Below are positions 8,996 through 51,788 of a stretch of DNA of 64,000 nt, one piece after another. This DNA comes from an uncultured candidate division Zixibacteria bacterium (GTDB taxonomy: Bacteria; Zixibacteria; MSB-5A5; UBA10806). A program made the translations under genes and the position numbers. The stretch lies in NCBI GenBank assembly GCA_963801605.1, contig CAWDFP010000006.1, forward strand, positions 1,344,001-1,408,000. The letters are read 5' to 3'. Below the pieces are notes generated by a model, which saw only the letters and a program-made list of their open reading frames with translations, did not search any database and was not told the DNA's origin. Positions within the stretch are counted from its first letter, which is position 1, and every line of letters begins with the position of its first letter.

Positions 8996-11761
8996 CTATT
9001 TAAGCATCGTCATTTTTTTAGAAATCCGGTAATCTCCGCAAGTCAGACGGTAGTAATACATTCCTGACGATGCCCCAAGTCCCGAATCGGTTTTGCCGTC
9101 CCAAACCGCAGAGTGATAACCCGGCTCAAGATAGGAATCGACCAGACTCCTGATTTTCTGGCCAAGGTTGTTGTAAATTTCGAGGTTCACATTGCCGGCG
9201 TTCGGCAAGGCGAAATCGATCCTGGTAGTCGGATTGAAGGGATTGGGATAATTTTGCCCCAGAGCTATTTCGCGCGGCAAACCGGAAACATAATCGGCTC
9301 CGATACCCTGGCCGCCCTCGACCAAAGTCATCCGGATCATCCAATCACTGAGAGTCCAGTGGCTCCAGCCGTCGGGATTGTTGTCTGAGTACCACCACGA
9401 CTGTCTTTCGACGGGAGGCATAGTATCCGAACCGACATAAGGCCCGCCATCGGTTACATCCGCCCAGTGCAGCACTACCCAGAGCGGCTGATATTCGGTA
9501 TTGACATTAACGTCATAACTGGCCCACTCGCCCGGTCCGGGAAGAACCGGATTTTCGATTCTAAATAGATATGATGTCGTGTCCGGAAGAGCATCCATTT
9601 CGGGGTTTATGTCGACGTAGTCGAAGTAACCTGAGAATGCTATCGGCGCTAAATAGAAACGAACATTCGTAATCGTAAAGGGCAGCGTTATGTTGGGATC
9701 AAATCGCGTGGCGAACTTGCGGTTTGTCGAATTTGGATAGGCATCCACCCAGATTGACATATCCGAACTGTTATCATCGTAGATCATCTCATTGGTAACG
9801 CGGAATTCCTTCGAAATGGTATTGTTGTCCGGAGTGTAATCATCGGCTAACGGGACTGAAAACTGGATCCTGTATGTTCCCACTATTGACGGTACCCAGC
9901 CGTCGAAATTCATCCGCTCGCTGGCATACGGCGCCAGGTCGTATATCGTATTGATTGTCGAATAAACTTCAGCATCGAGAGAATCGAAGATTGAAACCAG
10001 GACATCGGCGGTTTCTGTATATGATCCAAAGTTCTTAATTGTTGCGATTGGTATTGTCGGCCAGTTGACAGTAACTTCATCAAAAGGTGAGGCTATTGAG
10101 ACTGCCTGCAGATCATGCCAGCTTCTCGATACCAGCGCCAGCGTGTTATTCGAGGTATCCTCATCGCCGACCATTTCCGCCGCGAACGAGATGCGATATC
10201 GTCCATCAGATGGCAGCGTCACGTTGGGGCTGAAAAACACCTGAGTCGCCACAAATGATGTTAGGTCAGTCACGTTGGATGATGATGTATACAGCACCTG
10301 ATTGCTATCGAGTTTGGTAATGGTGCAGGTAACTGTGAAACTTTCGGTAGCAGTCCCGACATTCATAAATGTGGCGGTGGGGGTAAAGCTTACTCCGGGC
10401 GTGATAAACTCCGAAGGATCGTCAATAGATGAAACAGCCACATCATGAGTCAATGGATCGCGAAGCTGGATAGAGTAGAGCATCCCGCCGCTGCCCCACT
10501 CGCGGGCGTTTACCGCCTTACCGCCTGCAGTCGCGTAATGACCAGAATCGCTGATAGCCACGCCAAATATCGAGCCGGGTTCATCGATATCATCGAGAAG
10601 CTGGAAGATTGGTACGTTGCTCTCTCGAATAAAACAGGTGACAACATCGCCGTAAGTTGCGCCATATTTGCCATAACTGCCCGCTATGGCATATTCGCCT
10701 GTGGCCGAAAGCGCCACCGATGGCACCATATCACCATACTCTGCATAATCTATCAGCACGCCGCCGGTTTCGGCATCCCACATCATGAATTTGCCGCCGA
10801 CAATTTGCCCGCCGTCAAAATCCATTGTGCCGCAGGCTACAGTTGAGCCGTCGTTGGATACGTCCACCGCGGTTACCCAATCATGCTGAGTGGCTCTTAT
10901 CCATCTGGTACTATACTCAGCGCCGTTCCAGGCATAGAGATATACAACGCCCGTAAACGTTCCGATAGTTACAAGGGAACCGTCGGAGGATGTCTTGGCA
11001 ATATTTTGTGAATAGTTATAAAGCGTGGTCCGTTGTGTGCCGTTGGGAATCTCGTAAACATAAATAGCGGAATAACATGAGACTACTGCCACCGAACCAT
11101 CATCCGATAAATCGATTCCGTTAAGCCCTTGAGCCAGATCAAAAGTACGCGTCAGAATCGTATCGCCGGTGGCGACCTCGCACGCTACCAGGACTCCATC
11201 GCTGCCGGTTCCTGCAAACGCATACACAACTACACTGCCATCTCCCGAAATGGCCGTGCCGCTTCCATTGAATGTTGGATCAACTGAAATCTGATGTGTG
11301 GGAAGCGGTGAATCTTTATCCCACATGAAGCCCGGCATACCAGAGCCTGTCCCCGAAAAATTAATATTGGATGCGGCTACGGGCATATTCCAGGGGGTTC
11401 GTTCGTAATAACGCCAGACTGGAGTTTCAAGCCCGGCCGAGGCGTAGGCCGCAAAACGCATGTGATTCAGCCACCATCCGGCGAATATACCGGAGCCATC
11501 CGGTGTTGTTGCCACATTCTGAGCAATCGCGTCCTCATGATTGCGATCCACCCACATGACCTCAGACATAAGATGAGGATTCCTGTAGGGACGTCGTTCC
11601 TGCGATAATATTCTCGATGGTCCTTCTCCGGGGGTGACCGTCCTCATGACCTGCTTTCCATCCATTGTGGAAAACTCGTTGGATTGCCCCAACGGATTGG
11701 TCGCAGCCAATATCGAGATAGGCATAAGAACGATTAATAAAACTGATAGCATTTTAGACAT
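8996..11761 (-). CDS. Secreted beta-propeller/Ig-like (CARDB-type) protein with T9SS/FlgD-type C-terminal domain
   Basis: Signal peptide, SxDG propeller repeats, D..xNN Ig-like repeats, QNYPNPFNP...YYYRL...KKMTMLK. GGAGG RBS. Confidence 0.8.
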   Translation of the reverse strand: MSKMLSVLLIVLMPISILAATNPLGQSNEFSTMDGKQVMRTVTPGEGPSRILSQERRPYRNPHLMSEVMWVDRNHEDAIAQNVATTPDGSGIFAGWWLNHMRFAAYASAGLETPVWRYYERTPWNMPVAASNINFSGTGSGMPGFMWDKDSPLPTHQISVDPTFNGSGTAISGDGSVVVYAFAGTGSDGVLVACEVATGDTILTRTFDLAQGLNGIDLSDDGSVAVVSCYSAIYVYEIPNGTQRTTLYNYSQNIAKTSSDGSLVTIGTFTGVVYLYAWNGAEYSTRWIRATQHDWVTAVDVSNDGSTVACGTMDFDGGQIVGGKFMMWDAETGGVLIDYAEYGDMVPSVALSATGEYAIAGSYGKYGATYGDVVTCFIRESNVPIFQLLDDIDEPGSIFGVAISDSGHYATAGGKAVNAREWGSGGMLYSIQLRDPLTHDVAVSSIDDPSEFITPGVSFTPTATFMNVGTATESFTVTCTITKLDSNQVLYTSSSNVTDLTSFVATQVFFSPNVTLPSDGRYRISFAAEMVGDEDTSNNTLALVSRSWHDLQAVSIASPFDEVTVNWPTIPIATIKNFGSYTETADVLVSIFDSLDAEVYSTINTIYDLAPYASERMNFDGWVPSIVGTYRIQFSVPLADDYTPDNNTISKEFRVTNEMIYDDNSSDMSIWVDAYPNSTNRKFATRFDPNITLPFTITNVRFYLAPIAFSGYFDYVDINPEMDALPDTTSYLFRIENPVLPGPGEWASYDVNVNTEYQPLWVVLHWADVTDGGPYVGSDTMPPVERQSWWYSDNNPDGWSHWTLSDWMIRMTLVEGGQGIGADYVSGLPREIALGQNYPNPFNPTTRIDFALPNAGNVNLEIYNNLGQKIRSLVDSYLEPGYHSAVWDGKTDSGLGASSGMYYYRLTCGDYRISKKMTMLK

Positions 11762-25284: not shown

Positions 25285-26600
25285 ATGGCAGTCGGCGATA
25301 AGGCAAAATCATTTTATTTGGCAACACTTGGTTGCCCCAAGAACGAGGTCGATTCGGAGGCTCTGCAAACGGACCTCCTTGCCGCCGGGTTGATACCGGT
25401 TGACGACCCCGGTTCTGCCGACCTGCTCCTAGTCAACAGTTGCGGCTTCATTAATGATGCTAAAGTCGAGGCTATCCAGACTGTCCTCGATCTCCATCAG
25501 GATAGAAAGGCCGGGTCAATCCTGGTATTGTGCGGATGCCTGCCCGTTCGATACAACTTAAGTCGGTCGCTTAACGAGGTCGATATCTTTCTTCCCTGGA
25601 ATCGGCATCATGAGCTTGTCTCAAAATTGCAGGAGTTGGGCTGGCCGATAAACAAGCCAAAGACACCAGCTTTCGATAGGTATCATCCTAAAAGGGTTAA
25701 GCCGATTTCGGCCTTTTCATATCTACGCATTTCCGAAGGTTGCGATAATCGCTGTGCTTACTGCGCCATCCCCAATATCAAAGGGCCGTTCACCAGTCGC
25801 CCCCTGCAGGAAATTATCTCTGAGGCTGAATTTCTTGCCAACAACGGCGCCAGAGAACTGGTTCTGATTGGACAGGATACTACCCTTTATGGACGAAACG
25901 GCGCCGATAAAGATAGCCTGGCCAATTTGTTAGAGCGGTTAGCCTTAGAAACTTCCTGTGATTGGATCAGGCTGATGTATGCTCATCCGGCACATCTCGA
26001 TAAAAATATAATTTCCGTTATGGCCAGCAACCGATAAAGTAATTAAGTACATCGATCTTCCCCTTCAGCACATAAGCGAACATCTCCTCAAGAAAATGAA
26101 CCGCAAGGTACATCGCATCCAGATCGAATCGCTTATCGCCAAATTGAGGGAAAGTATGCCGGGATTGGTATTACGCACCACGTTTATCGTCGGGTTTCCC
26201 GGCGAAACCGATAAGGATTTCGCCGAGCTTCTCGATTTTTGCGAAACTGCGAAATTCGATAATGTTGGAGTTTTCAAATATTCCCCGGAGGAGGGAACCC
26301 CGGCTTATAAATTCAAAGACCGTGTTGACGAAGAGACTATCGACGAAAGATACTTGACTCTTTTGGATATTCAGAATATGATTTCGGGCGAGATAGCTAA
26401 AGCAGCGTGTCGGACAGCGGGAACGGGTCCTGTTGCAGGAGATCGATTCCGACGGAGTCGGCCATGCCCGCGGATGGTTTCAGGCGCCGGAGGTTGACGG
26501 TCAGGTGCTGATAAGCAACTGTCACGCTAAACCCGGCGAGTTTACAGAGGTCAAAATTGTAGGCTCCGATGCTTATGATCTTTCCGCCACCGAGCTTTAG
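25285..26600 (+). CDS. rimO: Ribosomal protein S12 methylthiotransferase; two frameshifts (~26031 and ~26395)
   Basis: LGCPKNEVD, NSCGFI, CDNRCAYC radical SAM motif. Corrected frames give KYIDLPLQH, FIVGFPGET and TRAM domain QAPEVDG..AYDL ending TAG at 26600. Confidence 0.9.
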
Positions 26601-38289: not shown

Positions 38290-40875
38290 ATGGAGGAAAA
38301 GATGAAGTTTTACAGGCTCGTGGTCATATTAATTCTACTTTGCACCGCTGGAGCATCTGCACAGGTGGGACGCACCGGTGTGCCGTTTCTGCTGATCGCG
38401 CCGGGAGCGAGGGCGGCCGGCATGGGAGAGGCATTTATCTCGATTGCAGATGACGCCACGTCCGTGCATTGGAATCCCGCCGGATTGGGGCGCTATCCCT
38501 TAACCGGAACCTGGAAAACCCTTCAAGGCAGCGATAAAGACTCCATTCAGGCGGTTGTCTTGGTTAAAAATAACCTGCCCGAAAATAATTACCGCCAATA
38601 TGATATCTGGGGTTTGGTAAACAGTAAATTGGCCAAATGGGATGGTGTTGCCTGGACGACAGGAAGCAGGCAGCAATTGAATGCCGGTTCATCCCTAAAA
38701 TCGCTTCTGATACGCTACACCGGTTTAAGTGAGGAGGCGGCCGGACCCTATATTGATAAGCTGGCCCGTCAGAATAATCCTATCACTCCGGAGACAATCG
38801 ATTCGCTCAGGACCAGACTGACCGGCGCTCTTCCGGCAAATTACTCTTATAAAGACGAAATCGGATATGGTTTCGATAAACTCAATAAGGCCTGGCTGGA
38901 ATTGCGAATTAATCCTGTCGGAATCGACCAAATTCGCGCTGATATCAATGGCGCTTTGAAAGATTCGATTCCCTCTACGGCGAATCTCGATAAGATCGCT
39001 TTTGGATTTGATCGCGCCATTGCCTCCAAGGGAGACCGTCGTATCTGGATACCTTATGATCTTATCCTGCCCGATACCATCAACTGCGTTGGATCAGATG
39101 ATAAAAATATTTATATCGGCACAAAATCCGGATTCTTCCGCCTGGAGCCGGATAAGTTGAGATGGTCGTCATTCAGCGCTAAAGCAGATTCGATGGTATC
39201 TGACAATGTCACCGTTGTCGAAAAAGTTGGAACCCGCGTCTATGTCGGAACCGATAAGGGCATAATGAGTTTCTCCGGCCGCACTTTTAATGCCTTCGCA
39301 TCCGACGCTGGCGCTCCCAAGGGACGAATCACTGCTATCGCCGCCGATGGTGATCGCAATGTTTGGGCTTCCACTCCCACAGATCTATATCATTATGATG
39401 GGTTAAAATGGTCCAATGCTCAGGAAAAGCAATTTGGCGTCGGCCAGACTTTAATTAAGTCGACTCAAAATTTCTACGGAGAGCTTGGAGTGGTCGACAG
39501 CGCCAGAATTCTAACCGAAATCGCCAGGGCTAACGCTAATCTTGGTGACACGGTATCAGCCGGACAATCAATAAAAATGCCGTATCGCTTAGGTTATAAA
39601 GGCGAACCCACGGCTCTTGGCGTTGACCCCAAAGGGCGAGTGTGGATTGGCACCACCACCGGCATAAGCTATTTCGATGGCGAAAGTTTCCGTCTTTTCG
39701 GTTACAAACTTATCCAGGCCGATCAGCCAACGACTGTTGACGAGGTTGCCACTCGTTTTATCCCGGATCGCAATCCGGTAAAACTTCAAAAATTAGCGGC
39801 ATTGATAAAACAATATAACGGCTTGACCTCCGATTCTCTTGCGGCTGGGTCCAGAATACTCGTTTTTGCCAACGCTTTGGGAACTGAGATTAATACTATC
39901 GAGCCGATTTCTTCCAAATCGACTGTCGTGGCGACAGACCAGGGAGTGGTCGAATACGATAACGGCAAATGGGGTCGGATGCATAATAACGATTTCTCAG
40001 GCTCCAGTATCTCCAATATCTATTCGCACTCCAGGGATTTATGGGTCGGCTCGAACGATAAGGTTTCAGTCTATGCCGCGCCCAAAAAGCAAATCACATT
40101 TATGCATTCCAACTACCTGGTGCAGCTTGCCAGTGATATCTATTATGAATATTTCTCCTTCGTTCTCCCTACCAGGGATTGGGGAACGTTTGGAATGGGA
40201 GTCACTTTCCTCTCTCTGGGAAATCAGCAGAGGATGGATGAGGTCGGCAGGCCAATGGGTACTTTCTACACTTACGAAATGGCCTTGACCTTGTCTTACG
40301 GTACCAGGCTTATGAATAACGTTTACGGCGGCCTGTCGCTGCGTTATATTAATTCGCATCTATCGATTGCAGGCGCTGGACGAGAACAGGGTACCGGTAT
40401 TGGCTCTTCGGCGGCTATCGACGCTGGCGTTCTCTATGATATGAGCCGTAAAATGACCCTGGCTGCTACGGTAACAAATATCGGACCTGACATTTCTTAC
40501 ATCGACGCTGATCAGGCTGACCCGCTTCCCCGCAAGCTTGCGGTCGGTTTCAATTATAAGTTGATCGATTCCCCGTTCAATCGACTCGCGGTTATCGGCG
40601 AGGCTACCAAGCTTTTGGTCGATCTTAACCATAGCGTCAAAACCGAAATTGAAGAAATCATTCCGCATGTCGGTTTGGAATATTGGTATTCGAATTATGT
40701 AGCTCTGCGCGCCGGTTATGTTTATGACAAGGTCGGCTACCAAAAGTACGTCACACTTGGCGCTTCTCTGCAATACACCGATTACCGGTTTGATTTTGCC
40801 TATATTCCGCCAAGCAACGAAAATACCAACCGCCTGGGAAACACTATCAGGTTTTCCATGAACGTGGGGTTCTAA
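38290..40875 (+). CDS. porV: PorV/FadL-family barrel with a ~530-aa beta-propeller/LysM-like insertion
   Basis: PFLLIAPGARAAGMGEAF..ADDATSVHWNPAGL N-terminus. Barrel resumes at KKQITFMHSNYL (40084). QADPLP and GLEYWY...ALRAGY motifs, terminal F. Confidence 0.8.
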   Translation: MEEKMKFYRLVVILILLCTAGASAQVGRTGVPFLLIAPGARAAGMGEAFISIADDATSVHWNPAGLGRYPLTGTWKTLQGSDKDSIQAVVLVKNNLPENNYRQYDIWGLVNSKLAKWDGVAWTTGSRQQLNAGSSLKSLLIRYTGLSEEAAGPYIDKLARQNNPITPETIDSLRTRLTGALPANYSYKDEIGYGFDKLNKAWLELRINPVGIDQIRADINGALKDSIPSTANLDKIAFGFDRAIASKGDRRIWIPYDLILPDTINCVGSDDKNIYIGTKSGFFRLEPDKLRWSSFSAKADSMVSDNVTVVEKVGTRVYVGTDKGIMSFSGRTFNAFASDAGAPKGRITAIAADGDRNVWASTPTDLYHYDGLKWSNAQEKQFGVGQTLIKSTQNFYGELGVVDSARILTEIARANANLGDTVSAGQSIKMPYRLGYKGEPTALGVDPKGRVWIGTTTGISYFDGESFRLFGYKLIQADQPTTVDEVATRFIPDRNPVKLQKLAALIKQYNGLTSDSLAAGSRILVFANALGTEINTIEPISSKSTVVATDQGVVEYDNGKWGRMHNNDFSGSSISNIYSHSRDLWVGSNDKVSVYAAPKKQITFMHSNYLVQLASDIYYEYFSFVLPTRDWGTFGMGVTFLSLGNQQRMDEVGRPMGTFYTYEMALTLSYGTRLMNNVYGGLSLRYINSHLSIAGAGREQGTGIGSSAAIDAGVLYDMSRKMTLAATVTNIGPDISYIDADQADPLPRKLAVGFNYKLIDSPFNRLAVIGEATKLLVDLNHSVKTEIEEIIPHVGLEYWYSNYVALRAGYVYDKVGYQKYVTLGASLQYTDYRFDFAYIPPSNENTNRLGNTIRFSMNVGF

Positions 40876-40878
40876 ATA

Positions 40879-43800
40879 GTGTCCTTTCGCAGCCTTCGGA
40901 TAATTATTCCGGCAGTCATATTACTAATCCTGCCGGAATTAGCCTCATCTAAGGATATGATGCGTCCTATTACCTGGAAAGTTGTTCCTCAGGAAACGGA
41001 CGGGGGTAAAATCAGGCCATCATTTAAATCCGATATCTCTCAAAAAAATATTCTTGGATTGGATAGGCCAACTCCGTTTTCGCTTCCTACCGGAAAACGC
41101 GGGTTGCCCCTGTCGCTGGCGGTTTTAGAGGATACCGTCAAGGTCCTGGTGCTCAAAATAGAATTCCAGCCGGAAATACCTGACGATCCCAAAACCACCG
41201 GTATCGGCACTTTCGATATGCGTTCTTATGATGAATTTGTCGCTCAGGAACATCATTATATCGATCCCGCTCCGCATGGAACGGCTTATTTCAATTCGCA
41301 CATGGAAGGTTTGCGTCGATATTGGTATTTCGTCTCCGATAAAAAACTCGACCTTAGCTGGGATATATTTCCTCAACCGGAAAGCTCGACTTTCAGGCTG
41401 CCGGTTAAAATGTCTTATTACGGTTCCGAGGGTCCCTGGGCTGATTCCTCGGTTGCCGACAAGTTGGGGCATTTTCTAATCGACGCTATCACTTTTGCCG
41501 ACTCGGCCGCTCCGGAGATAGATTTTTCGCAATACCAGGCGATAATAATCTTCCATGCCGGCTCGGATCAGCAAAATAATTTCGCATTTATCAACGATAC
41601 TCCCGATGATTTTTATACCGGGTTCATCAGACTGGCCGAACCGGTTATCGTCGACAACGGAGCGTTTCAGGTAAGTGAAGCTTTGCAGGTGCCGGAGACT
41701 GAAAGCCAGGATAATCGCATCACAGCTCTGAATGGCGTTCTGGCGCATGAGTTCGGACATCAACTTGGGCTGGTTGACCTGTATGACACCTATAATTTCA
41801 TGACACAGATCGGCGATTTCTCGCTGATGGATAATAACGGCATGTCTGTGGGTGTCGAATTCGACAGCATCTCATCATCTGTTGGTGGCACTATTCCGGT
41901 TTATCCCGACGCCTGGTCGCGGGCCTATCTGGGTTTTGATGTGCCCAAAGTTGTGTCACGCATGGGGGGAGAATCCGTCAGCGCGGCCGTCCTCAATTAT
42001 TCCGAAAGCGAAATTGTCAAAGTCCCTATAACGGATTTTGAATATTACCTGATCGAAAACAGGCAGCAGGTAAATCATGAAACTGCCCTCATTGCTGATC
42101 ACCAAACGGGTGTAATTTTAGGTCCGGGATATTTAGATAACGAAGGCCTGTTGGTTGCCAACGGCGAATACGATCTCTTCTGCCCCGGCAACGGTATGCT
42201 GATCTGGCATATCGATGAATATCCGGCTTATCAAAATTATACGGGATCTCCCGATAACAACTTCTTCACCAATACTCTTCAATGGGATAAAGATCGTCGC
42301 TTTGTGTCTCTGGTCGAGGCCGACGGCGTGGTCGATTTTGGAGGCAACTATTACCGTGGCTACGGCGATCAAAACGATTTCTTCAGGGCTGGCGGCCCCA
42401 CAGCCATGACTCCTTTTACTCGTCCACCCTCGCGAACCAATCTGGGCGCCGATTCCCATGTATTTATCACCAACGTTTCCGCTTCCGATACCATCATGAC
42501 AGTCGATATCGATAACAACTGGCTCTTGCCCGGCTGGCCGCAGATGAGTCGTCCAGCGGCCATGTCTGATCCAATTATTACCGATGTTGGCGCGCTGGGC
42601 TCTAATGCGGTCGTAATGGCCGGCGGAAATCAGCTTTTGGCCTGGCGATTCGATGGCAGCAAAATTATCCCTAATTACGACTCAATTGGTTTCATGCGTT
42701 ATGACAGCAGTATCGCCGTTTACCCCTTAGCGGTGATAGCTGATTGCAATACCGATATCGTTGGCCGTCCGGTCGCGGTTGATTTCGATGGTGACGGTAT
42801 CAACGAGCTTGCGGCCGTCACAACTACTGGACGACTTTATGCAGTTAGGGCCGCTGACGATGACCACGATGGCCGCGGCGACGCCCTAACCGGATTCCCA
42901 TATCAAATTGGCGCTGGAGTCACGCTTCCGCCGATTGCCGTTAATTTTCTGGCGCGGCCCGGTCAGCAGCTTCTTGTATTCCGTAGTTCCGAAGTCCATC
43001 TGATTTATTCCAATCCTCCGGATTCGTTACCGGTCGATAGTCTGATTTTTGCATGGGAATATGACTTTCCTTCCGCGTCCGCTTATAGCGTTGCCGGAAA
43101 AAATGTAGTAGATCTGATTGAACGCGAAAGGTTTGGACATATTATCAGGATGACTGCTGATTCTGGCGCGGTTAATTTTCAGCAGGCGTTTAGGGCCTCA
43201 TATTATGACCCCGCGAAATATCTGATCTCAGGCGATGTCAGCCGTAGCGGCGGAATGCCGGATATCGTGCTCGTAAGCGGTCGAACTGTGCGGCTTATTG
43301 GAGCGGATGGCGCTCTTAAATGGGCTGTAGATATCCGCGATGAACTCGGCCGCCCGGCGCTGGGCGATATCAATTCGGATGGTTTCCCGGAAGTTGTCGT
43401 TGCCGGCAATGCGAAAATTTACGCTATTTCCTACAATGGCGTTATGCTTGATAATTTCCCCATCAATATGCGGCTATATGATACCAGTGGCATCCCGGAT
43501 ACGTCCGCCATTACATCCCCTCCGATATTGGGAGATGTTGACGGTGACGACAATCCCGATATCATCATTGGTCTGCCGGCTGGCTCTATCTATGCGTTCA
43601 ATTATCACGCCGATAAACTTTCAGGTTTCCCGCTTCCCAGTTCATTTGGGATATCGCGAGCTTGTGCCCTGGGCGATATCAACGCCGATGGCAGGATCGA
43701 TCTGGTCACCGTGGAAAATCCCGGTTTTGTCAAAGCCTGGGCGATAGATACATCGTATATTGCCGCTGATGTCCCCTGGGGCAATTCGGGCGGCACTCCT

Positions 43801-44136
43801 GGCAACAGTGGTTACCTCAACCCCATTTATGAAAAACCGATGGTCAGCGCTGATCTCCAACTTCCTGAAAATTCCGTATTCAACTATCCAAACCCGGCCA
43901 GAAACACTACCACCATCAGGTACTACCTTAACAGCGATTCCCGGGTAAATATCGATATATTTGATTTCATGGGGGAGAGGGTTCACGATATCCAACTTGC
44001 CGGGTTGGGTCATGTTTCGAACGAATATGTTTGGGACTGCAGCAGTGTGGCATCCGGAATATATTTTTGCCGTGTCGAGGCTGTAAATGACACTGGCAAG
44101 AACTGGCGGATGATTAAAATTGCGATTGCAAAATAA
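40879..44136 (+). CDS. M6 (immune inhibitor A-like) metallopeptidase with FG-GAP repeats and CTD
   Basis: IFHAG, AHEFGHQLGLVDLYD, FSLMD, EYYLIENR, DxxxDG repeats, FNYPNP. Confidence 0.85.
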   Translation: MSFRSLRIIIPAVILLILPELASSKDMMRPITWKVVPQETDGGKIRPSFKSDISQKNILGLDRPTPFSLPTGKRGLPLSLAVLEDTVKVLVLKIEFQPEIPDDPKTTGIGTFDMRSYDEFVAQEHHYIDPAPHGTAYFNSHMEGLRRYWYFVSDKKLDLSWDIFPQPESSTFRLPVKMSYYGSEGPWADSSVADKLGHFLIDAITFADSAAPEIDFSQYQAIIIFHAGSDQQNNFAFINDTPDDFYTGFIRLAEPVIVDNGAFQVSEALQVPETESQDNRITALNGVLAHEFGHQLGLVDLYDTYNFMTQIGDFSLMDNNGMSVGVEFDSISSSVGGTIPVYPDAWSRAYLGFDVPKVVSRMGGESVSAAVLNYSESEIVKVPITDFEYYLIENRQQVNHETALIADHQTGVILGPGYLDNEGLLVANGEYDLFCPGNGMLIWHIDEYPAYQNYTGSPDNNFFTNTLQWDKDRRFVSLVEADGVVDFGGNYYRGYGDQNDFFRAGGPTAMTPFTRPPSRTNLGADSHVFITNVSASDTIMTVDIDNNWLLPGWPQMSRPAAMSDPIITDVGALGSNAVVMAGGNQLLAWRFDGSKIIPNYDSIGFMRYDSSIAVYPLAVIADCNTDIVGRPVAVDFDGDGINELAAVTTTGRLYAVRAADDDHDGRGDALTGFPYQIGAGVTLPPIAVNFLARPGQQLLVFRSSEVHLIYSNPPDSLPVDSLIFAWEYDFPSASAYSVAGKNVVDLIERERFGHIIRMTADSGAVNFQQAFRASYYDPAKYLISGDVSRSGGMPDIVLVSGRTVRLIGADGALKWAVDIRDELGRPALGDINSDGFPEVVVAGNAKIYAISYNGVMLDNFPINMRLYDTSGIPDTSAITSPPILGDVDGDDNPDIIIGLPAGSIYAFNYHADKLSGFPLPSSFGISRACALGDINADGRIDLVTVENPGFVKAWAIDTSYIAADVPWGNSGGTPGNSGYLNPIYEKPMVSADLQLPENSVFNYPNPARNTTTIRYYLNSDSRVNIDIFDFMGERVHDIQLAGLGHVSNEYVWDCSSVASGIYFCRVEAVNDTGKNWRMIKIAIAK

Positions 44137-44177: not shown

Positions 44178-45029
44178 ATGAAGGCGCTTAATATTTTGAT
44201 TGTGATAGCTGTAGTATTTTCGGCTGCTCTGTGTCAGGCCGCAGGCTTGACCCGGACAGTTTCGGTTAACGAATATTTCGCGGAAAAATCATTATCCCTG
44301 CATAGCTATCTATCCAATCAGCTTGATGTCAAAGGCAACGACACCGACTTGCGCGCTGATATTTATGAATTCCACGCCAAATCACCTGTTAAGGCCTTTG
44401 TGATGTCGATGCTGATACCTGGCGCGGGACAGTATTACAATGGCTCAAAAATAAAAGCTGCTTCATTTTTTGCTGTCGATGTAGCCCTTTGGTCGGGTTA
44501 TCTCCTTTATCATGGTAAAGGCGTCAATATGGAAAATGATTATAAAGCCTTTGCCAATCAGAATTATCATTTTTCGACTTATTTCGGTTGGTGGGATGGT
44601 CTGGATTCAAGCAGTCAAAACGTTTTTTCGCATCGAATTTATCTCGATTCAACAGGTCAAAGCCCGATTTATAACCGCGAGTATTATGAAAATATAGGAA
44701 AATACGATCAATTTCAGGTTGGCTGGGGCTCCAGCGGTCTGAATCATCCCCCGCGGATTTCTCCCAACGATACTACCAGAACTGCCTGGTACGGAGATAA
44801 CAACGAACGTCTGACTTACCTTGGAATGCGAAAAAAATCAAACGATTATTTCTCAAATGCCAAAACGATGGCCATAGTGTCAATAGGTAATCATCTCATT
44901 TCGGCCATCGAGGCTGCTATTGGCGCCAGAGGATTTAATAAAGGCGGCAAGCAATATTCGCTCCAGTTGGAATCGAGAGATATTAACGGACGGGTCGTGC
45001 CGTTTGCAATGGTCAGGACGATATTCTGA
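44178..45029 (+). CDS. Hypothetical outer-membrane protein (S.L.PG.GQ.Y type), paralog 1
   Basis: Signal peptide, KAFVMSMLIPGAGQYY, YYENIGKYDQF, NHLISAIEA, terminal F. Confidence 0.7.
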   Translation: MKALNILIVIAVVFSAALCQAAGLTRTVSVNEYFAEKSLSLHSYLSNQLDVKGNDTDLRADIYEFHAKSPVKAFVMSMLIPGAGQYYNGSKIKAASFFAVDVALWSGYLLYHGKGVNMENDYKAFANQNYHFSTYFGWWDGLDSSSQNVFSHRIYLDSTGQSPIYNREYYENIGKYDQFQVGWGSSGLNHPPRISPNDTTRTAWYGDNNERLTYLGMRKKSNDYFSNAKTMAIVSIGNHLISAIEAAIGARGFNKGGKQYSLQLESRDINGRVVPFAMVRTIF

Positions 45030-45031
45030 TT

Positions 45032-45778
45032 ATGATAGCTCGTAAATTAATAATTTTAGGGTTGGTATTATCCTTCCTGATGCCGGTTCAGGCATTCCCT
45101 GAAACGATTTCTCGCCTTATGGAGCGGCAACTTAAGCAGGGCGGCGAAGATCTCAATCCTCCCTCTTTTTTAACGCCGCAAAAGGGAAAAAGGAAATCCA
45201 AGTTCAAAGCGCTGGGGCTATCGCTTCTCCTTCCGGGTGCAGGGCAGTATTATACCGAAAATAAAACCAAAATGATTATCTTCGGAAGCGCCGAGGCTCT
45301 CATCTGGACCAGCTTTTTCGGCTTACGCACCTATGGCAAATGGAAAAAAGATGATTATAAGGGATGGGCCGCTGTACATGCCGGAGCGTCTATCGCCGGT
45401 AAATCCGACCTCTTTTTCGAAAAGCTGACTTACTACAATAATCTTAACGAATACAATCAGCTTGAGCTTGTCTATGAGGGGCCTGATGCGCAGCTTTTCC
45501 CAACCACCGCCAGTTACTGGTGGAATTGGGATTCCCAGGCTAACCGGGATTATTACCGCAGCCTGCGTAATCAAAGCAAAAACGCCTATCGACGATCCCT
45601 TTTTCTGGTAGCTGGAGCCGTGATTAACCGCGTCCTTTCGGGAATTGACGCTTACCGCTCCGCTTCGGCTATGGATCGAAATCAGGAATTTGGCGCCGCC
45701 GACTGGGGTCTTTACTATTCTGCGGACGGCCCGCTATGGGATAGCAAACTTGAAATCGGGTTTGTTAAAAAGTTTTAA
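45032..45778 (+). CDS. Hypothetical outer-membrane protein (S.L.PG.GQ.Y type), paralog 2
   Basis: KALGLSLLLPGAGQYY, NRVLSGIDA, terminal F. Confidence 0.7.
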   Translation: MIARKLIILGLVLSFLMPVQAFPETISRLMERQLKQGGEDLNPPSFLTPQKGKRKSKFKALGLSLLLPGAGQYYTENKTKMIIFGSAEALIWTSFFGLRTYGKWKKDDYKGWAAVHAGASIAGKSDLFFEKLTYYNNLNEYNQLELVYEGPDAQLFPTTASYWWNWDSQANRDYYRSLRNQSKNAYRRSLFLVAGAVINRVLSGIDAYRSASAMDRNQEFGAADWGLYYSADGPLWDSKLEIGFVKKF

Positions 45779-46703
45779 GGCTGCCCTGGCATGCCTTTTA
45801 GCCTTCTCTTGTGCTACCGGAGGGATGGGGCAATCGGGCAAGTTGCCGGTTCGCTCGCAATCCAGGCCGATCTTGAACGTCCGGCAGATTACCCAGGCCG
45901 GCCCTCAACTCTCCGATGATGTAGCCCTGATTTCGCCCGCGGCGGTTGTTATTAACGATATTGGCGAAATTTTTATCTCCGATAATGCCTCCAACTCGGT
46001 TTACAGGCTTTCATCGTCATTGGAGCTGCTTTCAAAGGAGGGTAGTCCGTCATCGAGCATCTTCAATAAGCCTTTGGGAATGGCTTGCGATGCTGCCCTC
46101 AATCTTTACGTAGTCGATAGCGGCAACCATCGGATTCAGGTTCTTGATCACAATTTGCGCTTTGCCCGAAGTGTAACCTCATATTCCGATCAAAATAATG
46201 AATCAGTTGATTTTTCCCAGCCGACCGATATTTCAATTGATGGTGAAGGCAATTTCTGGATTGCCGATGATAATAAGATTTTAAAGCTCAACCCTTTTTT
46301 TGATCTTCTTCTTGAAATATCCGACCAGGTCCCCAGTCCGTTTATTGTAGGTAAAGTTTCATCGCTCAGGGTCTCAAAGAAAGGTCTGGTTGCCATCGCC
46401 GATAACGGTAACCAGCGAATCAGGATCATCTCAACCGCTGGCAACTATATTTCTGAAATCAACGTTTCCTCGCCGCGGGCGGTTGCCTGGGATGGGGATG
46501 ATGATATTTGGGTTGTCGAACAAAATAAACTTTCGTCCTATGATTTGGCCGGAAATGAGCGCTATTCATTTATAGGAGATCAGCCCGGCGCTCGGCCCGG
46601 CTGGGCCGCGTTTGATCCCGGCGGTCGGCTGATTATCCTCGATAGCGGCCTGCGCAAAATTGGAATCTTTGAGGTGGTTCGAGGCTCCCAAGGTGGTAAA
46701 TAA
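45750..46703 (+). CDS. NHL-repeat beta-propeller protein (probable lipoprotein; start uncertain)
   Basis: FNKPLG..D..LYVVDSGNHRIQV and ADNGNQRI repeats. LAFS-C lipobox. Confidence 0.75.
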   Translation: MKSGLLKSFKAALACLLAFSCATGGMGQSGKLPVRSQSRPILNVRQITQAGPQLSDDVALISPAAVVINDIGEIFISDNASNSVYRLSSSLELLSKEGSPSSSIFNKPLGMACDAALNLYVVDSGNHRIQVLDHNLRFARSVTSYSDQNNESVDFSQPTDISIDGEGNFWIADDNKILKLNPFFDLLLEISDQVPSPFIVGKVSSLRVSKKGLVAIADNGNQRIRIISTAGNYISEINVSSPRAVAWDGDDDIWVVEQNKLSSYDLAGNERYSFIGDQPGARPGWAAFDPGGRLIILDSGLRKIGIFEVVRGSQGGK

Positions 46704-46874: not shown

Positions 46875-49800
46875 ATGAAAAAATGTATCGCTTCATTATT
46901 TGTGTTCTTTTTATATGCCATCGCTTCGAGCCAGGCGCCGGATACTTCTGTTACGGTCCACGGTAAGGGCACTCGCGGGCCATATCAGCTTGGCTTCCGA
47001 TATTTAATTAACGGCTCATTCTCCTTATTTCACGGCGATAAACCCATCAGCGCCGACAGCTTTACAGTCCAATTCGCTGACGGTATCCTCGATCTTACTG
47101 AGCCTCTTCCAATCGGAGATTCCCTGTTTGCCCGATTTCGCTTCATGCCGCTTACGCTTAAAACACGCTATTTCCTGCATGATATCGCATCTTCCAGCGC
47201 GGATACGTCAACAATAATTGATCTAAAATCAACTCCTGGCGTTGAACACTTTGGAAGCGATCTCTCTATTACCGGCAGCAAAGGATTTTCATTTCAAGCC
47301 GGGCAGGGAGTCAATAACTCCTTGTCTCAATCGCTCAACCTGTCTATTGCCGGCGATCTCATTCCGGGATTGCATACCTCTGCCCATATCTCAGACAAGT
47401 CAACCGGCACAAACGGGGTTACCCGACGGCTTGAGGAACTTGACAAGATTTATATCGAGGCCGAATCCGACAAATTCAAAGGGACCTTTGGCGATTTTGA
47501 TTATACTCGTGATCGTGATCCGCTCTTGGGATTCGAAAGAAAATTGACCGGCTTAAAAGCTCTTTATGCCAATAAAGGCAATTCGATACAGGGAGCCGCC
47601 GCATTTTTCCCCGGAGAATATTCCTCTATTACCATAAGCGGCCATGATGGTCAACTCGGGCCGTATTATCTAACCGATCTTGGTGGACGTCAGGGAACGC
47701 AGATATTACCGGGTTCCGAGAAGATTTATCTCGATGGAATTTTGCAGCGGCGCGGTGATGATTATCAGATCGATTATGATGCTGGAACCATCCTGTTCGC
47801 ACCCTCAAAAGTGATTCGCGATGAGAGCCGTATCACTCTCGATTATGAAGTTTCCCGCGAGGAGTATGGACGAAGTTTTTATTCTGCGTCGGGTGAAGCT
47901 GCGCCCGCGCCGGGTTTTCGCGTTTATTCAAGTGTTCTTCAGGAGGGCGATAACAAAAGCTCCCCCAAAAGCTTTGAAATGACCGACGAGATCAAAAGCA
48001 TTCTTCAGAACGCCGGCGCAAACCGTTTCAGTGCTGCTAAAAGCGGTGTAAAACCTGTTGGCCCCGGATTGGGAAGCTACAATCTTGATACCACCGGGAC
48101 TCCGCATTATGTTTATGTCGGGGCAAATCGCGGCTCATTCGATGTGACATTCTCATTCATTGGTACAAACCTCGGCTCCTATCGTGCCCTGGGTGGCGGC
48201 TCGTATGTTTATAACGGTCTTAACCTGGGCGATTATGAACCAGTAATATTGATTCCCCTTCCTCAGGTAAGCAGGTACGGCTCTTTCGGCTCAACCTGGA
48301 TGGCCCCCGACAGCTCAATTGCCTTTGAAGGTGAATTAGCCGGCTCTCTTAATGATCGTAATACTCTTTCTAATTTCGATCCGGTCCAGCAGGGGGCCTC
48401 CGGATATGGGGCCGCGCACCTCAGGCAAAATATATTTGGAGAAAATAGCTTCATCGGCTTTGATGCCCGGTTTCGTAAGATTGGCCGTGAAGCTATCTTC
48501 CCGGGCAGAATTGATGATGTAGAACGTTATCGCAAATACGATCTCGATGCCGCTCTTCCCAGCGCCGGAGAGAAGGTCGAGGAGGCTGCTATTAGCGGCG
48601 GCCCCGATAAACAGCGTGTTATTTCGTTCGAAATGGGCTATCTGACTCATCCCGATATCAAAAGCCGATATCGTCAGGCCGCCGGACTTAATTGGAAGAT
48701 TATAGGCCCGTTAAGCATCTCTTCGAGTCTCGAACGAACAACAGGTATTCGAACCTGGTGGAAACGCAATGCTTTAATCTCCGCCAACATGAAGCGTTTC
48801 CAACCTTCTTTCAGAGTCAATTTCGAGCAACGTGACGGCCTTTCCGGATTTAAATATTATGAATACGGGGCATCCTTACCGGCGACATATACCCAAAATA
48901 TCAGCGGCACAACGGAGTTGGTTTTTCGAGATGAAAAGTATCTGGATACGGTTTGGAAAAATAAATTCCAATCGGGATCGATTCAACAGAACCTGAATTT
49001 CGTTTTGGGGCCATCCGGTTTTTCGGGCGAATTGGCCGGATCATATTATCGGAAACATTACCGGGATTTCGCGGGTACCGACTCCGATCAGCGCACCGGC
49101 TGGACCCGGCTGACATACTCCGATCCCGCTGGCAGAGGTTCATTTTCGGTTAACGAACGCTTAAGTTCATCAAACGAAAGACTGCAATCGAAAAATTATC
49201 TCTTCGTGGGATTGGGACATGGCGACTACCGATTGGAAGATGGCGAATATATCAGTGATCCCCAGGGAGATTATATAGCGGTAATCGATGAGCTGGGAGA
49301 AGGGGAGAAGATTTCCGAAATCAATACCGAACTGAGCGGTTCGCTGTCTCCTTTCGTGGCATTCGATCCATCCCGAAAAATTGAATCAAGCGCCGGACGG
49401 TTGAGTATCGAATCCGATCTCACTTATTCTCTTAAAAAATCGTCTAATCGTCTTTTGGGATGGGATTTTTTCCCCTGGAGAACCTCACACGTTTCCAAGG
49501 TGGTTCTTCAGAATGGGCAACTCAACACCAGAGTTTATTATTATCCTCCGCGCGGCAATCATCGCTTTCGATATAATATGGAGCGTACCTTCGAAAATGG
49601 GGCGCCATACTCCAATGAAACTTCAAATAACCGTTCCAGAACCGATGAACTTTCCTGGGCTTTTCCTGCAAATAAAAAACTGGATATAATATTATCATTG
49701 TCATCGTCAAACGAAAGAAGATCGGTCAATGGATCGGGCTATAATATCGATCGCAACAGCGTTACAATATCGAATAGCTATCGCCCGACAAAATCGTGGA

Positions 49801-50144
49801 CCGTCACTTTTAGCCCGTCTTTCGAATCCGACCGCCAGAGCGATACCGGTCTCAAAGCCTCTCTTCCGGCGGTGGAAACGGGTCTCACACGGGAAATCGA
49901 ACGAACTGGCAGAATTTCAGCCAGGATAGGTTATGCCAGGATGATTGCTGCTCCTCATAATGTTTATGTTCCCTTTCAGGTGGCGCAGGGACGAGGCCCT
50001 GGCGATAACTTCGAGGCTAGCCTCATAGCTCGGCTAACCGTTACTAATAACGGACGGATTGATTTGTCTTATCGCTTCGAGGATTATGCCAAACGGCCTA
50101 TCAAGCATAATTTTAGATTAGAATTTACGGTGCTATTTTTATGA
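46875..50144 (+). CDS. Large outer-membrane beta-barrel candidate with SprA-like segment
   Basis: Signal peptide, alternating beta-strand pattern, GSEKIYLDG....GDDYQIDYDAGTILF motif. Confidence 0.65.
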   Translation: MKKCIASLFVFFLYAIASSQAPDTSVTVHGKGTRGPYQLGFRYLINGSFSLFHGDKPISADSFTVQFADGILDLTEPLPIGDSLFARFRFMPLTLKTRYFLHDIASSSADTSTIIDLKSTPGVEHFGSDLSITGSKGFSFQAGQGVNNSLSQSLNLSIAGDLIPGLHTSAHISDKSTGTNGVTRRLEELDKIYIEAESDKFKGTFGDFDYTRDRDPLLGFERKLTGLKALYANKGNSIQGAAAFFPGEYSSITISGHDGQLGPYYLTDLGGRQGTQILPGSEKIYLDGILQRRGDDYQIDYDAGTILFAPSKVIRDESRITLDYEVSREEYGRSFYSASGEAAPAPGFRVYSSVLQEGDNKSSPKSFEMTDEIKSILQNAGANRFSAAKSGVKPVGPGLGSYNLDTTGTPHYVYVGANRGSFDVTFSFIGTNLGSYRALGGGSYVYNGLNLGDYEPVILIPLPQVSRYGSFGSTWMAPDSSIAFEGELAGSLNDRNTLSNFDPVQQGASGYGAAHLRQNIFGENSFIGFDARFRKIGREAIFPGRIDDVERYRKYDLDAALPSAGEKVEEAAISGGPDKQRVISFEMGYLTHPDIKSRYRQAAGLNWKIIGPLSISSSLERTTGIRTWWKRNALISANMKRFQPSFRVNFEQRDGLSGFKYYEYGASLPATYTQNISGTTELVFRDEKYLDTVWKNKFQSGSIQQNLNFVLGPSGFSGELAGSYYRKHYRDFAGTDSDQRTGWTRLTYSDPAGRGSFSVNERLSSSNERLQSKNYLFVGLGHGDYRLEDGEYISDPQGDYIAVIDELGEGEKISEINTELSGSLSPFVAFDPSRKIESSAGRLSIESDLTYSLKKSSNRLLGWDFFPWRTSHVSKVVLQNGQLNTRVYYYPPRGNHRFRYNMERTFENGAPYSNETSNNRSRTDELSWAFPANKKLDIILSLSSSNERRSVNGSGYNIDRNSVTISNSYRPTKSWTVTFSPSFESDRQSDTGLKASLPAVETGLTREIERTGRISARIGYARMIAAPHNVYVPFQVAQGRGPGDNFEASLIARLTVTNNGRIDLSYRFEDYAKRPIKHNFRLEFTVLFL

Positions 50145-51788
50145 GATGGCGATTCGGAATATTTCTTCTTCTACTTTTTGGAAATGCCTCGGCAATCGAG
50201 ATTTCGGGCAATCATCTATTTAGTTATAAAGATATATCCCATTCAGTGAAACTTAATGTTAGCAGCGATTCTCTGATTAACCAAATTCAGACGCTTTATC
50301 GAAATGCAGGGTACTTCAATGCCAGGATTGACATTATTCCCGCCCAAAATACCGCTGATACAAAAATCATTATTCGCGAAGGCCTACCATCCCGAATCGA
50401 TGGCTATGACAATCGAACTTATCCCGCCTGATTCACAGATAACTTTTGATGATTTTATTTCCGAAATAAAAGGCCAAATCGCATCGCAATCTAATCTCGA
50501 TGATTTGGCCAATCAATCAATAGCACGTCTCGCCGAAAGCGGTATGCCGTTTGCCAGCGCCCAGTGGCGTGATTTTCAATTTGATTCTACCGGCAATATC
50601 GCCGCTGCCCTGAGAATTGTCTCCGGGCCGCGTATCAGGATTGCCAGAGTGCTTTATCGTGGCTTGAAGCGAACCCGACCGGAAACTCTCAATCGTGTCA
50701 TGAACTTCAGGCTCGGCGATTTCTATTCTGAATCGAAAGTATCTTCATCCGAACGTCTGCTCGATCAAATGCCTTATCTTCGAATTGCCTCTAAATTCGA
50801 AATCGAACAAATTGGCGATGGTGATTCCTGCGCGGTGATATTTAATGTCAGGGAGCTTCCCTCTACAAGGTTCGATGGTGCTGCCGGGGTGTCTTCGATT
50901 AAAGGCAAATCGACATTTGTGGGCCGGCTCGATCTCGAATTTGGTGATATCCTCGGCAGCGGACGAGCTTTTGGTCTTTTATGGAATAAAAAAGATCGCT
51001 TCTCCAGCGAGATTCGCATAAATTATCTTGAACCGTATCTACTGGGAAGCCAATTTGATTTAAACCTGGAAACTCACCAGGTCGATCGCGATTCTCTTTA
51101 TATTGAAAGTGGCGCCTCGCTGGGTTTATCGCATGATTTTGGTGACGGCCTGGGCGGCAGCCTCAATCTGGCAATAGGACGGACTGTACCTGAAACTGGA
51201 AGCAAGGTCGCCTCATCGAATGGCAGTGCTGTGGGTGTTCAGTTCGATTATTATAATTCCGATCACCCGGATAATCCGACTACCGGCTATGTTATTATGT
51301 CAAACGTAAACTACAAATATCGTTCCAATCAGAATAGTGATTCGCTCGATCTCCCCACTCGTCTTACATCGGCAGGCGTCGATCTTCGCTATTATGCGAA
51401 AGTCTCATCACGTTTCGTGGCGGCCTTTGCTGTTAGCGGATGGGGAATTATTTCTAATGATGGTCAGGTTCCGCCCGACGAGCTTCGCTACATCGGAGGC
51501 TTTCAAAGCCTTCGTGGTTACGCCGAGCGCCAGATTCCGGCTTTTCGTTACGCCATCGCAAGTTTCGAACCGCGCCTTATCACCGGACGGGCAAGCCGCG
51601 CCTACCTCTTCTATGACCTTGCTGAGGTTAAAGGCGGACAGGTGGGACCATATCGATTTTTCCCCGGATACGGCTTCGGACTGGTAGCGCCGACCAGCCT
51701 GGGTCAATTCAAGCTTGAAATCGGATGGGGGAAAAATGGCTTTCCCTCCAATGCCATCCTCAATTTTGGCCTGGCAGGACGATTCTAA
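50141..51788 (+). CDS. Omp85 (BamA/TamA) family protein with POTRA domains; frameshift at ~50402
   Basis: YRNAGYF and G..RT POTRA motifs, GGFQSLRGY loop-6 motif, G.GL...T.LG, terminal F. Confidence 0.8.

Follow-up and report, generated by a model that had tools for sequence, protein, structure and literature searches.

What does PorV, the outer-membrane carrier of the T9SS, do with about 530 residues placed between its hatch and its barrel? The question is raised by one gene of the window, i.e., the whole stretch of 64,000 nucleotides analyzed here. It consists of a single uninterrupted ORF (38290-40875, plus strand) of 861 aa with zero internal stops, and the 857 aa given in the protein set fit a start at the second Met. 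Residues 8-65 aligned with residues 4-64 of the F. johnsoniae PorV (6h3i_F), and the alignment restarted at PorV residue 69, corresponding to query residue 597; about 530 aa thus stand in place of a 4-residue linker. The same break was found with the P. distasonis PorV. The limits given in the original prediction, a PorV motif ending in WNPAGLG at aa 67 and a barrel from about residue 598, were confirmed by the 6h3i_F alignment.

The product exceeded the cut-offs of the PorV/PorQ families NF033709 (237.1 vs. 90 bits) and PF19572 (82.7 vs. 27 bits), and a FadL-type 14-strand barrel, an N-terminal hatch and the NPA motif were all recognized from the model, the fold match and the strands. The cut-off of the Bacteroidota PorV equivalog NF033710 was not reached (184 vs. 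250 bits); with this score and its 530-aa insert, the protein is a variant outside that equivalog. Barrel and hatch matched PorV 8gl6_F at Z 35.5 (rmsd 3.4, 308 residues aligned, 30% identity), ahead of FadL-type proteins (Z 29.4) and of the BAM-associated barrel (Z 24.6). The latter, BamG (9HIV chain F, PMC12611786), shares the FadL-type 14-strand barrel and the N-tail; a BamG-type identity was rejected because of this much weaker match (16% identity), and a link to porU is absent from BamG. Trees in which P. distasonis supplied the sole Bacteroidota PorV, on a long branch, grouped the product with it, apart from three outgroup paralogues (40 rows, 100/99), and gave the PorV grouping an SH-aLRT of 99 with ten paralogues included (quick tree, 72 rows). 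Across 109 sequences, conservation was highest in the hatch (0.85), against 0.69 in the barrel and 0.42-0.49 in the LysM-like units described below, and the loop 1 residues L610, L613, A614 and D616 were conserved in 101-108 of these sequences. A disulfide coupling of the SprF/PorG type was not supported: just two Cys columns showed partial conservation (in 28 and 65 of 109 sequences), and the C-terminal tail is absent.

Judged from sequence and model, the product of 38290-40875 is the PorV of this genome. It shares with Bacteroidota PorV (F. johnsoniae 6H3I/8GL6 chain F; P. distasonis L106) the NPA of the hatch, the 14-strand barrel, the conserved loop 1, the porU-porV gene order, the predicted docking of CTDs on the outer loops and the tree clade, and differs from it by a folded insert of 530 aa where Bacteroidota PorV has a linker of 4-7 residues. 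This insert is not a product of chance or mis-assembly, because the hatch-to-barrel spacing was kept within 524-731 aa in 109 of 109 aligned sequences and the GC content is equal in insert and barrel (0.48 in each); an assembly artefact or a recent insertion was likewise rejected. The features of the locus are collected in Table 1.

Table 1. Positions, within the window, of the porV variant, its parts and the flanking genes.
Feature	Positions	Strand	Basis
porU, T9SS sortase/signal peptidase, 1330 aa	34261..38253	+	NF033707 + Peptidase_C25
porV variant, whole ORF, 861 aa	38290..40875	+	
Signal peptide, aa 1-24, ends ASA-Q	38290..38361	+	read off the sequence
PorV/FadL hatch, aa 25-67, ends WNPAGLG	38362..38490	+	alignment to 6h3i_F
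530-aa insert: seven-bladed beta-propeller and three LysM-fold units, predicted periplasmic	38491..40080	+	AlphaFold2, fold matches, connector pattern
LysM-like unit 1, aa 123-165 plus 249-257	38656..39060	+	hhalign, separate model
Four-helix bundle interrupting LysM-like unit 1, aa 166-248	38785-39033	+	
LysM-like unit 2, aa 376-432	39415..39585	+	Pfam LysM at this position in homologues
LysM-like unit 3, aa 471-527	39700..39870	+	hhalign to unit 2
14-strand PorV barrel, aa 598-861, C-terminal Phe	40081..40872	+	structure match, strands, complex model
T9SS cargo resembling M6-type metalloproteases, type A CTD	40879..44136	+	NF052323, TIGR04183

The gene lies directly after porU, as had been noted, with a gap of 36 bp from the porU end (38253). 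The porU product scored 700.6 bits against NF033707 (cut-off 420), also matched Peptidase_C25, and has both the His838 and the Cys873 motifs. This adjacency had been taken to suggest a variant attachment machine. In fact, porU was upstream of the porV variant in 24 of 24 loci of relatives, the porU-porV order also occurs in P. distasonis and is ordinary PorV synteny, and porU was adjacent at none of 80 Fibrobacterota loci. As the porU link is ordinary in PorV and missing in Fibrobacterota, the insert is no specific feature of the attachment locus. On the other side, the M6-type cargo scored 370.7 bits against NF052323, under the cut-off of 600, and was above the cut-off of TIGR04183; its gene was downstream in 22 of the 24 relatives' loci, the remaining two of which end early.

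The AlphaFold2 model (pLDDT 87.6) places one seven-bladed propeller over aa 74-598. This propeller matched seven-bladed WD40 chains at Z about 23 over model residues 50-574, Reg_prop was above cut-off (29.1 vs. 20.4 bits, Pfam), and all of the blade motifs quoted originally were found. Of the LysM-like segments pointed out originally, both the two clear ones and the interrupted one are real internal repeats (hhalign 98% between units 2 and 3, 97% between units 1 and 2), with a beta-alpha-alpha-beta secondary structure in the models; unit 1 modelled separately gave a pLDDT of 89.7. We name these units LysM-like since Pfam LysM (PF01476) was below cut-off in the 861-aa protein (13.6 vs. 20.9 bits). 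It was above cut-off in 13 of 25 homologues, which were chosen partly for their LysM tags, and LysM was tagged in 15 of 120 listed homologues. At the position of unit 2, Pfam LysM reached up to 51 bits in homologues, and the unit 2 segment by itself gave zero Pfam matches; unit 3 by itself matched Pfam LysM at E 0.055 and was above cut-off in homologues P0082, P0084 and P0090. With the Kbp-like long-loop type of PF01476 the units have in common the beta-alpha-alpha-beta order, a conserved Asn after helix 2 and a GQ-I-L-P end; they differ in being longer than the Pfam model and set between propeller blades, one of them being split by a four-helix bundle.

No specific fold match was found for this bundle, and the fold search with unit 1 plus the bundle gave Z 7.1 at rmsd 9 at best, with nothing below E 0.001 in Foldseek. 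A solved LysM was not clearly named among the matches in the fold-search lists for the units. Their closest solved relatives, all weak, were Kbp (E 0.76) and contractile-injection baseplate chains (Z 5.1), the LysM domains of which are not known to bind the wall. Invariant residues occur within the insert. As a separate observation, the PF01476 score under cut-off, the lower conservation of the units than of the barrel and the weakness of their structural relatives speak against a wall tether.

The side of the membrane on which the insert lies, a check proposed at the outset, could be read from the strand topology. Barrel connectors average 10.7 aa after odd strands and 3.2 aa after even strands, so strand 1 begins on the short-turn (periplasmic) side, and this modelled topology predicts a periplasmic location for the insert. 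Such a location bears on the second option of the original prediction, a PorV fused to a PorZ-like glycan-binding module, which would be exposed at the surface and would hand anionic LPS to PorU. PorZ (5M11, NF052228) also has Reg_prop-type blades, and the insert shows a weak propeller-level likeness to it (NF052228 at 20.5 bits, 5m11 at rank 9, E 1e-6 at best against six PorZ homologues), to which the adjacency of porU may be added. PorZ is however a protein of its own at the cell surface, bearing a CTD and two propellers, whereas the insert holds a single propeller, lacks a CTD and is predicted to be periplasmic. Moreover, genomes with the fusion, for which a loss of porZ had been envisaged, keep a single separate full-length PorZ homologue (40 of 40 good genomes, score below cut-off), and the source genome has a separate, frameshifted one. 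PorZ membership was rejected on these grounds (20.5 vs. 260 bits), and the surface module, already largely refuted, seems to us very improbable.

The complex model of the PorV variant with the CTD of the neighbouring M6-type cargo scored 0.66, vs. 0.00 for the best of three controls; in the CTD complex runs at least 95% of contacts were in agreement, with a partner pLDDT of at least 82. The mark applied to such models is reached by 116 of 157 solved pairs and by 2 of 215 mismatched pairs; as a similar PorV-CTD complex is already solved, the pass shows likeness and may merely reflect that known structure. All confident CTD contacts in the complex model were in the N-tail and outer loops, with zero in the insert, and only the outer loops are predicted as the docking site of the type A CTD.

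The insert was matched in 283 of 285 genomes called Zixibacteria by homologue names, and a split PorV was found in 59 of 61 Fibrobacterota genomes as well as in F. succinogenes assemblies. The Fibrobacterota form has one LysM-like unit only, vs. three in Zixibacteria, and profiles built here matched this unit in 29 ORFs out of 63 at the loci and in 0 of 4 F. succinogenes ORFs. Being so patchy in Fibrobacterota, it leaves the propeller as the core common to both phyla, which also counts against a wall tether. In the tree, on which the label "Fibrobacterota-like" for proteins P0175-P0255 is partly based, compact and long PorVs are interleaved, with 3 changes; a single origin of the insert gave an AU p of 0.27. 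No paper describing a PorV with such an insert was found in the literature.

This mixture of short and long forms would suit a tolerant site, the linker between hatch and strand 1 accepting a passenger with a non-secretion role, e.g., in fastening the outer membrane to the wall. Other lineages indeed have unrelated inserts at the same site: in P0232, P0241 and P0248 it is a helical repeat (about 500 aa), in P0244 an acidic one (about 680 aa). However, other PorV-family paralogues in the genome are without insert, and near-fixation in two phyla together with the invariant insert residues argues for selection on this PorV carrier in particular. We consider a passenger improbable.

The host has the T9SS set of SprA translocon, PorU, PorZ homologue and CTD cargo (115 CTD matches), and SprA was present in 61 of 61 and 30 of 31 genomes of the two phyla. 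Unlike in the Bacteroidota T9SS, GldL, GldM, GldK and GldN were not detectable in hosts of the PorV variant: none was above cut-off for GldM (0/81), for GldL (0/61) or for GldK (0/51, with 4 weak matches), the GldM N-domain was not found in Fibrobacterota (0/61), and GldN was not found (0/81) in a search without working control. The source genome also gave zero FGE-family matches. The GldM and GldL searches did detect virus records serving as controls, whereas plasmids yielded no PorKLMN that could have served as one; very divergent motors would escape Gld profile searches.

The best explanation seems to us, tentatively and at slightly under an even chance, that the PorV variant serves a T9SS lacking the Bacteroidota motor, as a carrier that is tethered to the wall and largely stays in place. 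The propeller-LysM insert likely ties the carrier to peptidoglycan, and a wall-tethered PorV, which was the first option proposed originally, fits the modelled topology and LysM fold. Cargo would enter SprA and then bind the PorV loops as in Flavobacterium, while the propeller would act as a rigid spacer beneath the barrel, holding the LysM units toward the wall. PorV may stay next to SprA, with PorU and PorZ on the outer face, because a moving track to drag it would be absent, and cleavage and anchoring of cargo would take place right at the exit, with no shuttling to an attachment complex farther away. According to the accessible part of one study, PorV of Flavobacterium must be forced off SprA for cargo release (PMC10994853), so a fixed PorV must free its cargo some other way.

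Force could also come from elsewhere, the insert being a periplasmic handle by which another energiser, e.g., a motor of the ExbB-ExbD-TonB type, would draw PorV with its cargo away from SprA. It would then do the job of the GldLM/GldKN/PorG chain, with the LysM-fold units as protein-docking or ratchet surfaces. Searches in the two phyla found neither motor nor track, both phyla have the propeller in common, and the source genome holds an exbB-exbD-exbD/tonB-tonB cluster, all of which would suit a handle. ExbBD-TonB clusters however have an ordinary role with TonB-dependent receptors, and neither the 24 related loci (short flanks) nor the 80 Fibrobacterota loci showed a linked motor gene. Also, the part of a report that we could consult gives Ignavibacterium and Melioribacter PorV, SprA and Plug without other T9SS proteins (PMC11705866); together with the compact PorVs interleaved in the tree, this indicates that a motor-less system need not have the insert, which also speaks against the wall-tethered carrier. 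A handle, the main rival, appears rather unlikely.

Alternatively, the insert may be a structural periplasmic part of the translocon, packing on SprA at the site of the Flavobacterium SprE/SkpA dish and helping in PorV docking, pore gating or the presentation of cargo. Seven-bladed propellers are common docking platforms, and the insert strictly co-occurs with SprA. In Flavobacterium, the attachment point of the dish is close to the PorV site, and SkpA contacts the periplasmic face of PorV, as far as described in the accessible part of PMC10994853. Such a scaffold leaves unexplained the three LysM-fold units kept in Zixibacteria, and the CTD made no contact with the insert in the complex model; we judge it unlikely.

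A known protein to compare with the propeller-LysM module is PorE, described in the accessible parts of two papers as a T9SS periplasmic lipoprotein with TPR, WD40 and CRD domains plus an OmpA_C-like one (PMC7192894, PMC12773672). Both thus combine, as far as those parts go, a periplasmic propeller with a peptidoglycan-binding-type domain in a T9SS. Here the module lies inside the carrier, is LysM-like and not OmpA_C, and comes without lipoprotein anchor or TPR; TPR and OmpA matches were absent from the PorV variant (Pfam), and no sequence relation to PorE was seen. PorE is possibly, at most, a functional analogue of the insert. None of the 5 OmpA-domain proteins of the source genome, 3 of which were scanned by Pfam, was PorE-like.

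Models of the T9SS are built on Bacteroidota, in which a motor-driven track forces PorV, there a small and mobile barrel, off the translocon. Two phyla outside Bacteroidota have SprA, PorU and a PorV to which a large periplasmic module is joined, yet motor and track were undetected. The insert is therefore a concrete, testable part for cargo release in a motor-less T9SS, and F. succinogenes offers a cultured host. We hypothesize, as a possible but doubtful extension, that Zixibacteria and Fibrobacterota have a second kind of T9SS without GldLM/GldKN, in which the PorV propeller-LysM module would replace the energy chain as a wall-anchored ratchet or motor handle. For F. succinogenes, T9SS export of cellulases has been proposed with CTDs as the sole basis, and PorV goes unmentioned in the main text of that paper (PMC6851124). 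According to an inference published in 2025, the T9SS first arose within the gliding machinery (PMC12635249). If our hypothesis is true, this second kind of T9SS would be the cellulase export route of F. succinogenes, and the SprA-PorV-PorU core would be older than, and separable from, the gliding machinery.

The variant porV gene encodes, in a single open reading frame (Table), a protein with Pfam matches to PorV (82.7 bits), Reg_prop (29.1 bits, above cut-off) and LysM (13.6 bits, below cut-off). When it was aligned with Flavobacterium johnsoniae PorV (6h3i_F), residues 4-64 of the latter corresponded to query residues 8-65, and PorV residue 69 corresponded to query residue 597, where the alignment resumed. 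Thus, about 530 residues stand in for a linker of 4-7 residues, as the original prediction of a large insert between hatch and barrel had it; the position directly after porU was also confirmed. The hatch-to-barrel spacing was 524-731 aa in 109/109 aligned sequences and GC content was unchanged across the insert, which rules out chance or mis-assembly as its source. The insert architecture is real and conserved. Named homologues, with identities up to 65%, were Zixibacteria, taken here as the phylum. Within it the insert alone matched 283/285 genomes at a threshold of E 1e-3 and, by table count, 280 at one of E 1e-15; among good genomes the figure was 198/198.

Features of the porU-porV locus, the window and other contigs (G000, source genome; L, loci or contigs)
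Feature	Position	Strand	Size	Remarks
DEAD-box helicase	2920-5477			two overlapping ORFs; frameshifted in appearance
LptD	5474-8896	-	1140 aa
Propeller protein	8996-11761	-	921 aa	T9SS-type C-terminus
MiaB/RimO-like ORF	25285-26037			short; frameshifted in appearance
porU	36 bp upstream of porV variant		1330 aa	NF033707 700.6 bits
porV variant	38290-40875	+	861 aa	single ORF
LysM-like unit 1	aa 123-165 plus 249-257			model; split by four-helix bundle
LysM-like unit 2	aa 376-432			model
LysM-like unit 3	aa 471-527			model
M6-type protein	3 bp downstream of porV variant			type A CTD
Tandem DUF5683 genes	44178-45778			directly after M6-type cargo
NHL-repeat ORF	45645-46703
Exported protein	46875-50144		1089 aa	weak SprA-like stretch (E 7e-4); downstream of porU-porV
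Omp85/POTRA protein	50304-51788			next after the exported protein
PorV-family match	G000:C11:214202-220181 (locus)			above cut-off
porZ homologue	G000:C9:13226-15445 (L137)			frameshifted; error-rich contig
exbB, exbD, exbD-tonB fusion, second tonB	G000:C6:1464080-1467636 (L139)			cluster after a TPR gene
gldL-like gene	L113:4878-5438			virus-collection contig; similar ORFs in L108-L130
gldL-like and full-length gldM-like genes	L119:4935-6971			virus record G348; amid phage-looking ORFs
Triple-FKBP isomerase	L093:6257-7447			Fibrobacterota locus
Membrane-helix protein	L093:7520-8083		187 aa	Fibrobacterota locus; helix N-terminal; no Pfam family

In the AlphaFold2 model, built on 109 sequences (pLDDT 87.6, pTM 0.80), aa 601-860 together with the hatch make up a barrel of 14 strands. 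Its best structural match was PorV (Z 35.5, rmsd 3.4, 308 aligned); FadL-type channels reached Z 29 at most, and a BAM-associated barrel Z 24.6. Hatch-plus-barrel trees clustered the protein with Parabacteroides distasonis PorV, separate from the other PorV-family paralogues of the genome. It missed the Bacteroidota PorV equivalog cut-off (184 vs 250 bits), and it was therefore filed as a PorV orthologue of variant build. The gene porU lay upstream of the long porV in 24/24 loci of relatives, as it does in P. distasonis. We are highly confident of the identity and topology of the protein. Eight PorV-family matches above cut-off were present in the genome, and at least two short PorV-family genes sit directly after CTD-type genes, as dedicated carriers might.

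Residues 74-598 of the model matched seven-bladed propellers (Z about 23), which, with the Reg_prop score, substantiates the propeller expected from the sequence. Between the blades we observed three beta-alpha-alpha-beta units, mutually homologous (hhalign 94-98%). Pfam LysM was over cut-off, where units 2 and 3 lie, in 13/25 homologues, which had been chosen partly for their LysM tag; this tag was carried by 15/120 listed homologues. Thus, the LysM-like segments first noticed do exist as homologous units, but the LysM score of this protein itself did not reach the cut-off. Unit 1 modelled separately (pLDDT 89.7) gave weak structural matches; in two rows (Z 5.1) the split unit alone aligned with C-terminal segments, 56-57 residues long, of baseplate chains from injection systems, which we take to be LysM domains. 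In a 1050-aa form (homologues P0097, P0099, P0100, P0105, P0122 and P0124), unit 1 and the helical bundle are apparently repeated before the propeller. Unrelated inserts occupy the identical PorV linker site, which would suit a mere passenger at a tolerant site, a reading that we consider improbable. In homologues P0232, P0241 and P0248 about 500 aa of helical repeat fill the linker, and in P0244 about 680 aa of acidic Gly/Asp repeat.

The mean connector was 10.7 residues after odd barrel strands and 3.2 after even strands, and the C-terminal residue, after strand 14, is Phe. In outer-membrane barrels short turns are generally periplasmic; oriented by this rule, strand 1 would start in the periplasm, so that the insert is predicted to be periplasmic. 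The side of the membrane, which a structure model had been proposed to settle, is thereby assigned. A complex model with the CTD of the neighbouring cargo scored 0.66, and the highest-scoring of three controls 0.00; the pass mark was reached by 116/157 solved and 2/215 mismatched pairs. The runs concurred in at least 95% of contacts, with partner pLDDT of at least 82. All confident contacts fell in the N-tail and outer loops, and 0 in the insert. In the model L643 lies close to CTD Lys84. L643 aligns with PorV F115, which, in the complex already solved, is described as bonding the conserved lysine of the CTD (PMC10994853). The type A CTD is thus predicted to dock on the outer loops; since a similar complex is already solved, the pass measures likeness to it, not binding.

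A profile search also recovered relatives that are shorter but interrupted at the same point, with the propeller and usually one LysM-like unit; by Atlas placement, such clusters fall mainly in Fibrobacterota. Scanning genomes for this form gave 80 loci, whose titles, with a few exceptions under other names, read Fibrobacterota; four Fibrobacter succinogenes assemblies are among them. The ORF was complete in 68, all with hatch-barrel intervals of 368-529 aa. Among the matches listed, split PorV occurred in 59/61 sampled Fibrobacterota genomes, and it was the top family match in 58 of the 61. No porU lay within 8 kb of split porV in the 80 loci; elsewhere in Fibrobacterota genomes porU had a match in 41/41, above cut-off in 14. 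LysM-unit profiles detected one unit in 29/63 locus ORFs and 12/18 representatives (shuffles 0), and at the same threshold none in the four F. succinogenes ORFs, whose region corresponding to unit 2 aligns by pairwise BLAST (E 2e-7). Long and short forms were intermixed in the tree (3 changes); a single clade of long forms, as one origin of the insert would give, had p 0.27 and was not rejected. The 187-aa membrane-helix protein adjoins the long porV in 57/80 Fibrobacterota loci and the triple-FKBP isomerase in 27/80. The Flavobacterium translocon includes an isomerase subunit.

The source genome (completeness 87%) contains SprA and 115 CTD matches; SprA was found in 61/61 genomes of the phylum and 30/31 Fibrobacterota. 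The original prediction also considered a PorV fused to a PorZ-like module and proposed a survey for genomes with the fusion and no porZ. In 40/40 good genomes a PorZ homologue was encoded as a protein of its own, of full length and with a CTD, and scored under the curated cut-off; the source genome has a frameshifted one. This reading therefore falls, and we hold it highly improbable. The several porZ frameshifts, on a contig with many broken-looking genes, are probably sequencing error.

GldM (0/81), GldL (0/61) and GldN (0/81) were not found in genomes of the phylum, GldK was above cut-off in 0/51 (4 weak matches), and the GldM N-domain in 0/61 Fibrobacterota genomes; these are related, non-independent genomes, and 'not found' is not proof of absence. 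The GldM and GldL searches gave matches on virus records carrying such genes, a positive control that GldN lacked. Direct search of the source genome with those Gld sequences gave no match better than E 0.1, and PorP a single marginal match, inside LptD. A motif matched 23 virus-collection contigs; among five records tested, GldL matched in 2 (the other three being genomes) and GldM in 1.

In F. johnsoniae, cargo reportedly binds the PorV outer loops inside SprA, and forcing PorV away needs energy (PMC10994853); the force is thought to run from GldLM by way of GldK and PorG (PMC12635249). Because no such chain was detected, we tentatively prefer a putative tether: the insert would fasten PorV to the cell wall next to SprA and so make a fixed unit for export and anchoring, at somewhat less than even probability. 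Against this function, which we infer, the LysM signal is weak in this protein and the Fibrobacter unit is single and degenerate. Also, Ignavibacterium and Melioribacter are reported, in the available text, with PorV, SprA and Plug and without other T9SS proteins (PMC11705866), so that motor loss alone does not demand an insert. Alternatively, though unlikely, the propeller might be a handle for another energiser; the genome has an exbB-exbD-exbD/tonB-tonB cluster, but nothing connects it to the PorV variant. A part in the periplasmic scaffold of the translocon appears slightly less likely still.

No paper was found joining PorV with Zixibacteria, or on type IX secretion in Zixibacteria, in a search with most subscription papers outside it; by title or abstract opening, none of the seven combining PorV, LysM and T9SS concerned this architecture. 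As far as the available texts go, SprA is noted as FCB-wide (PMC12611786), and further phyla of the FCB group are described as possible carriers of T9SS (PMC11285876). T9SS export in F. succinogenes was proposed from CTDs, with PorV and the propeller unmentioned (PMC6851124). Within the literature searched, a PorV with a propeller-LysM insert is apparently undescribed. This build, together with the missing motor, would surprise a specialist, and the question is testable in a cultured organism.
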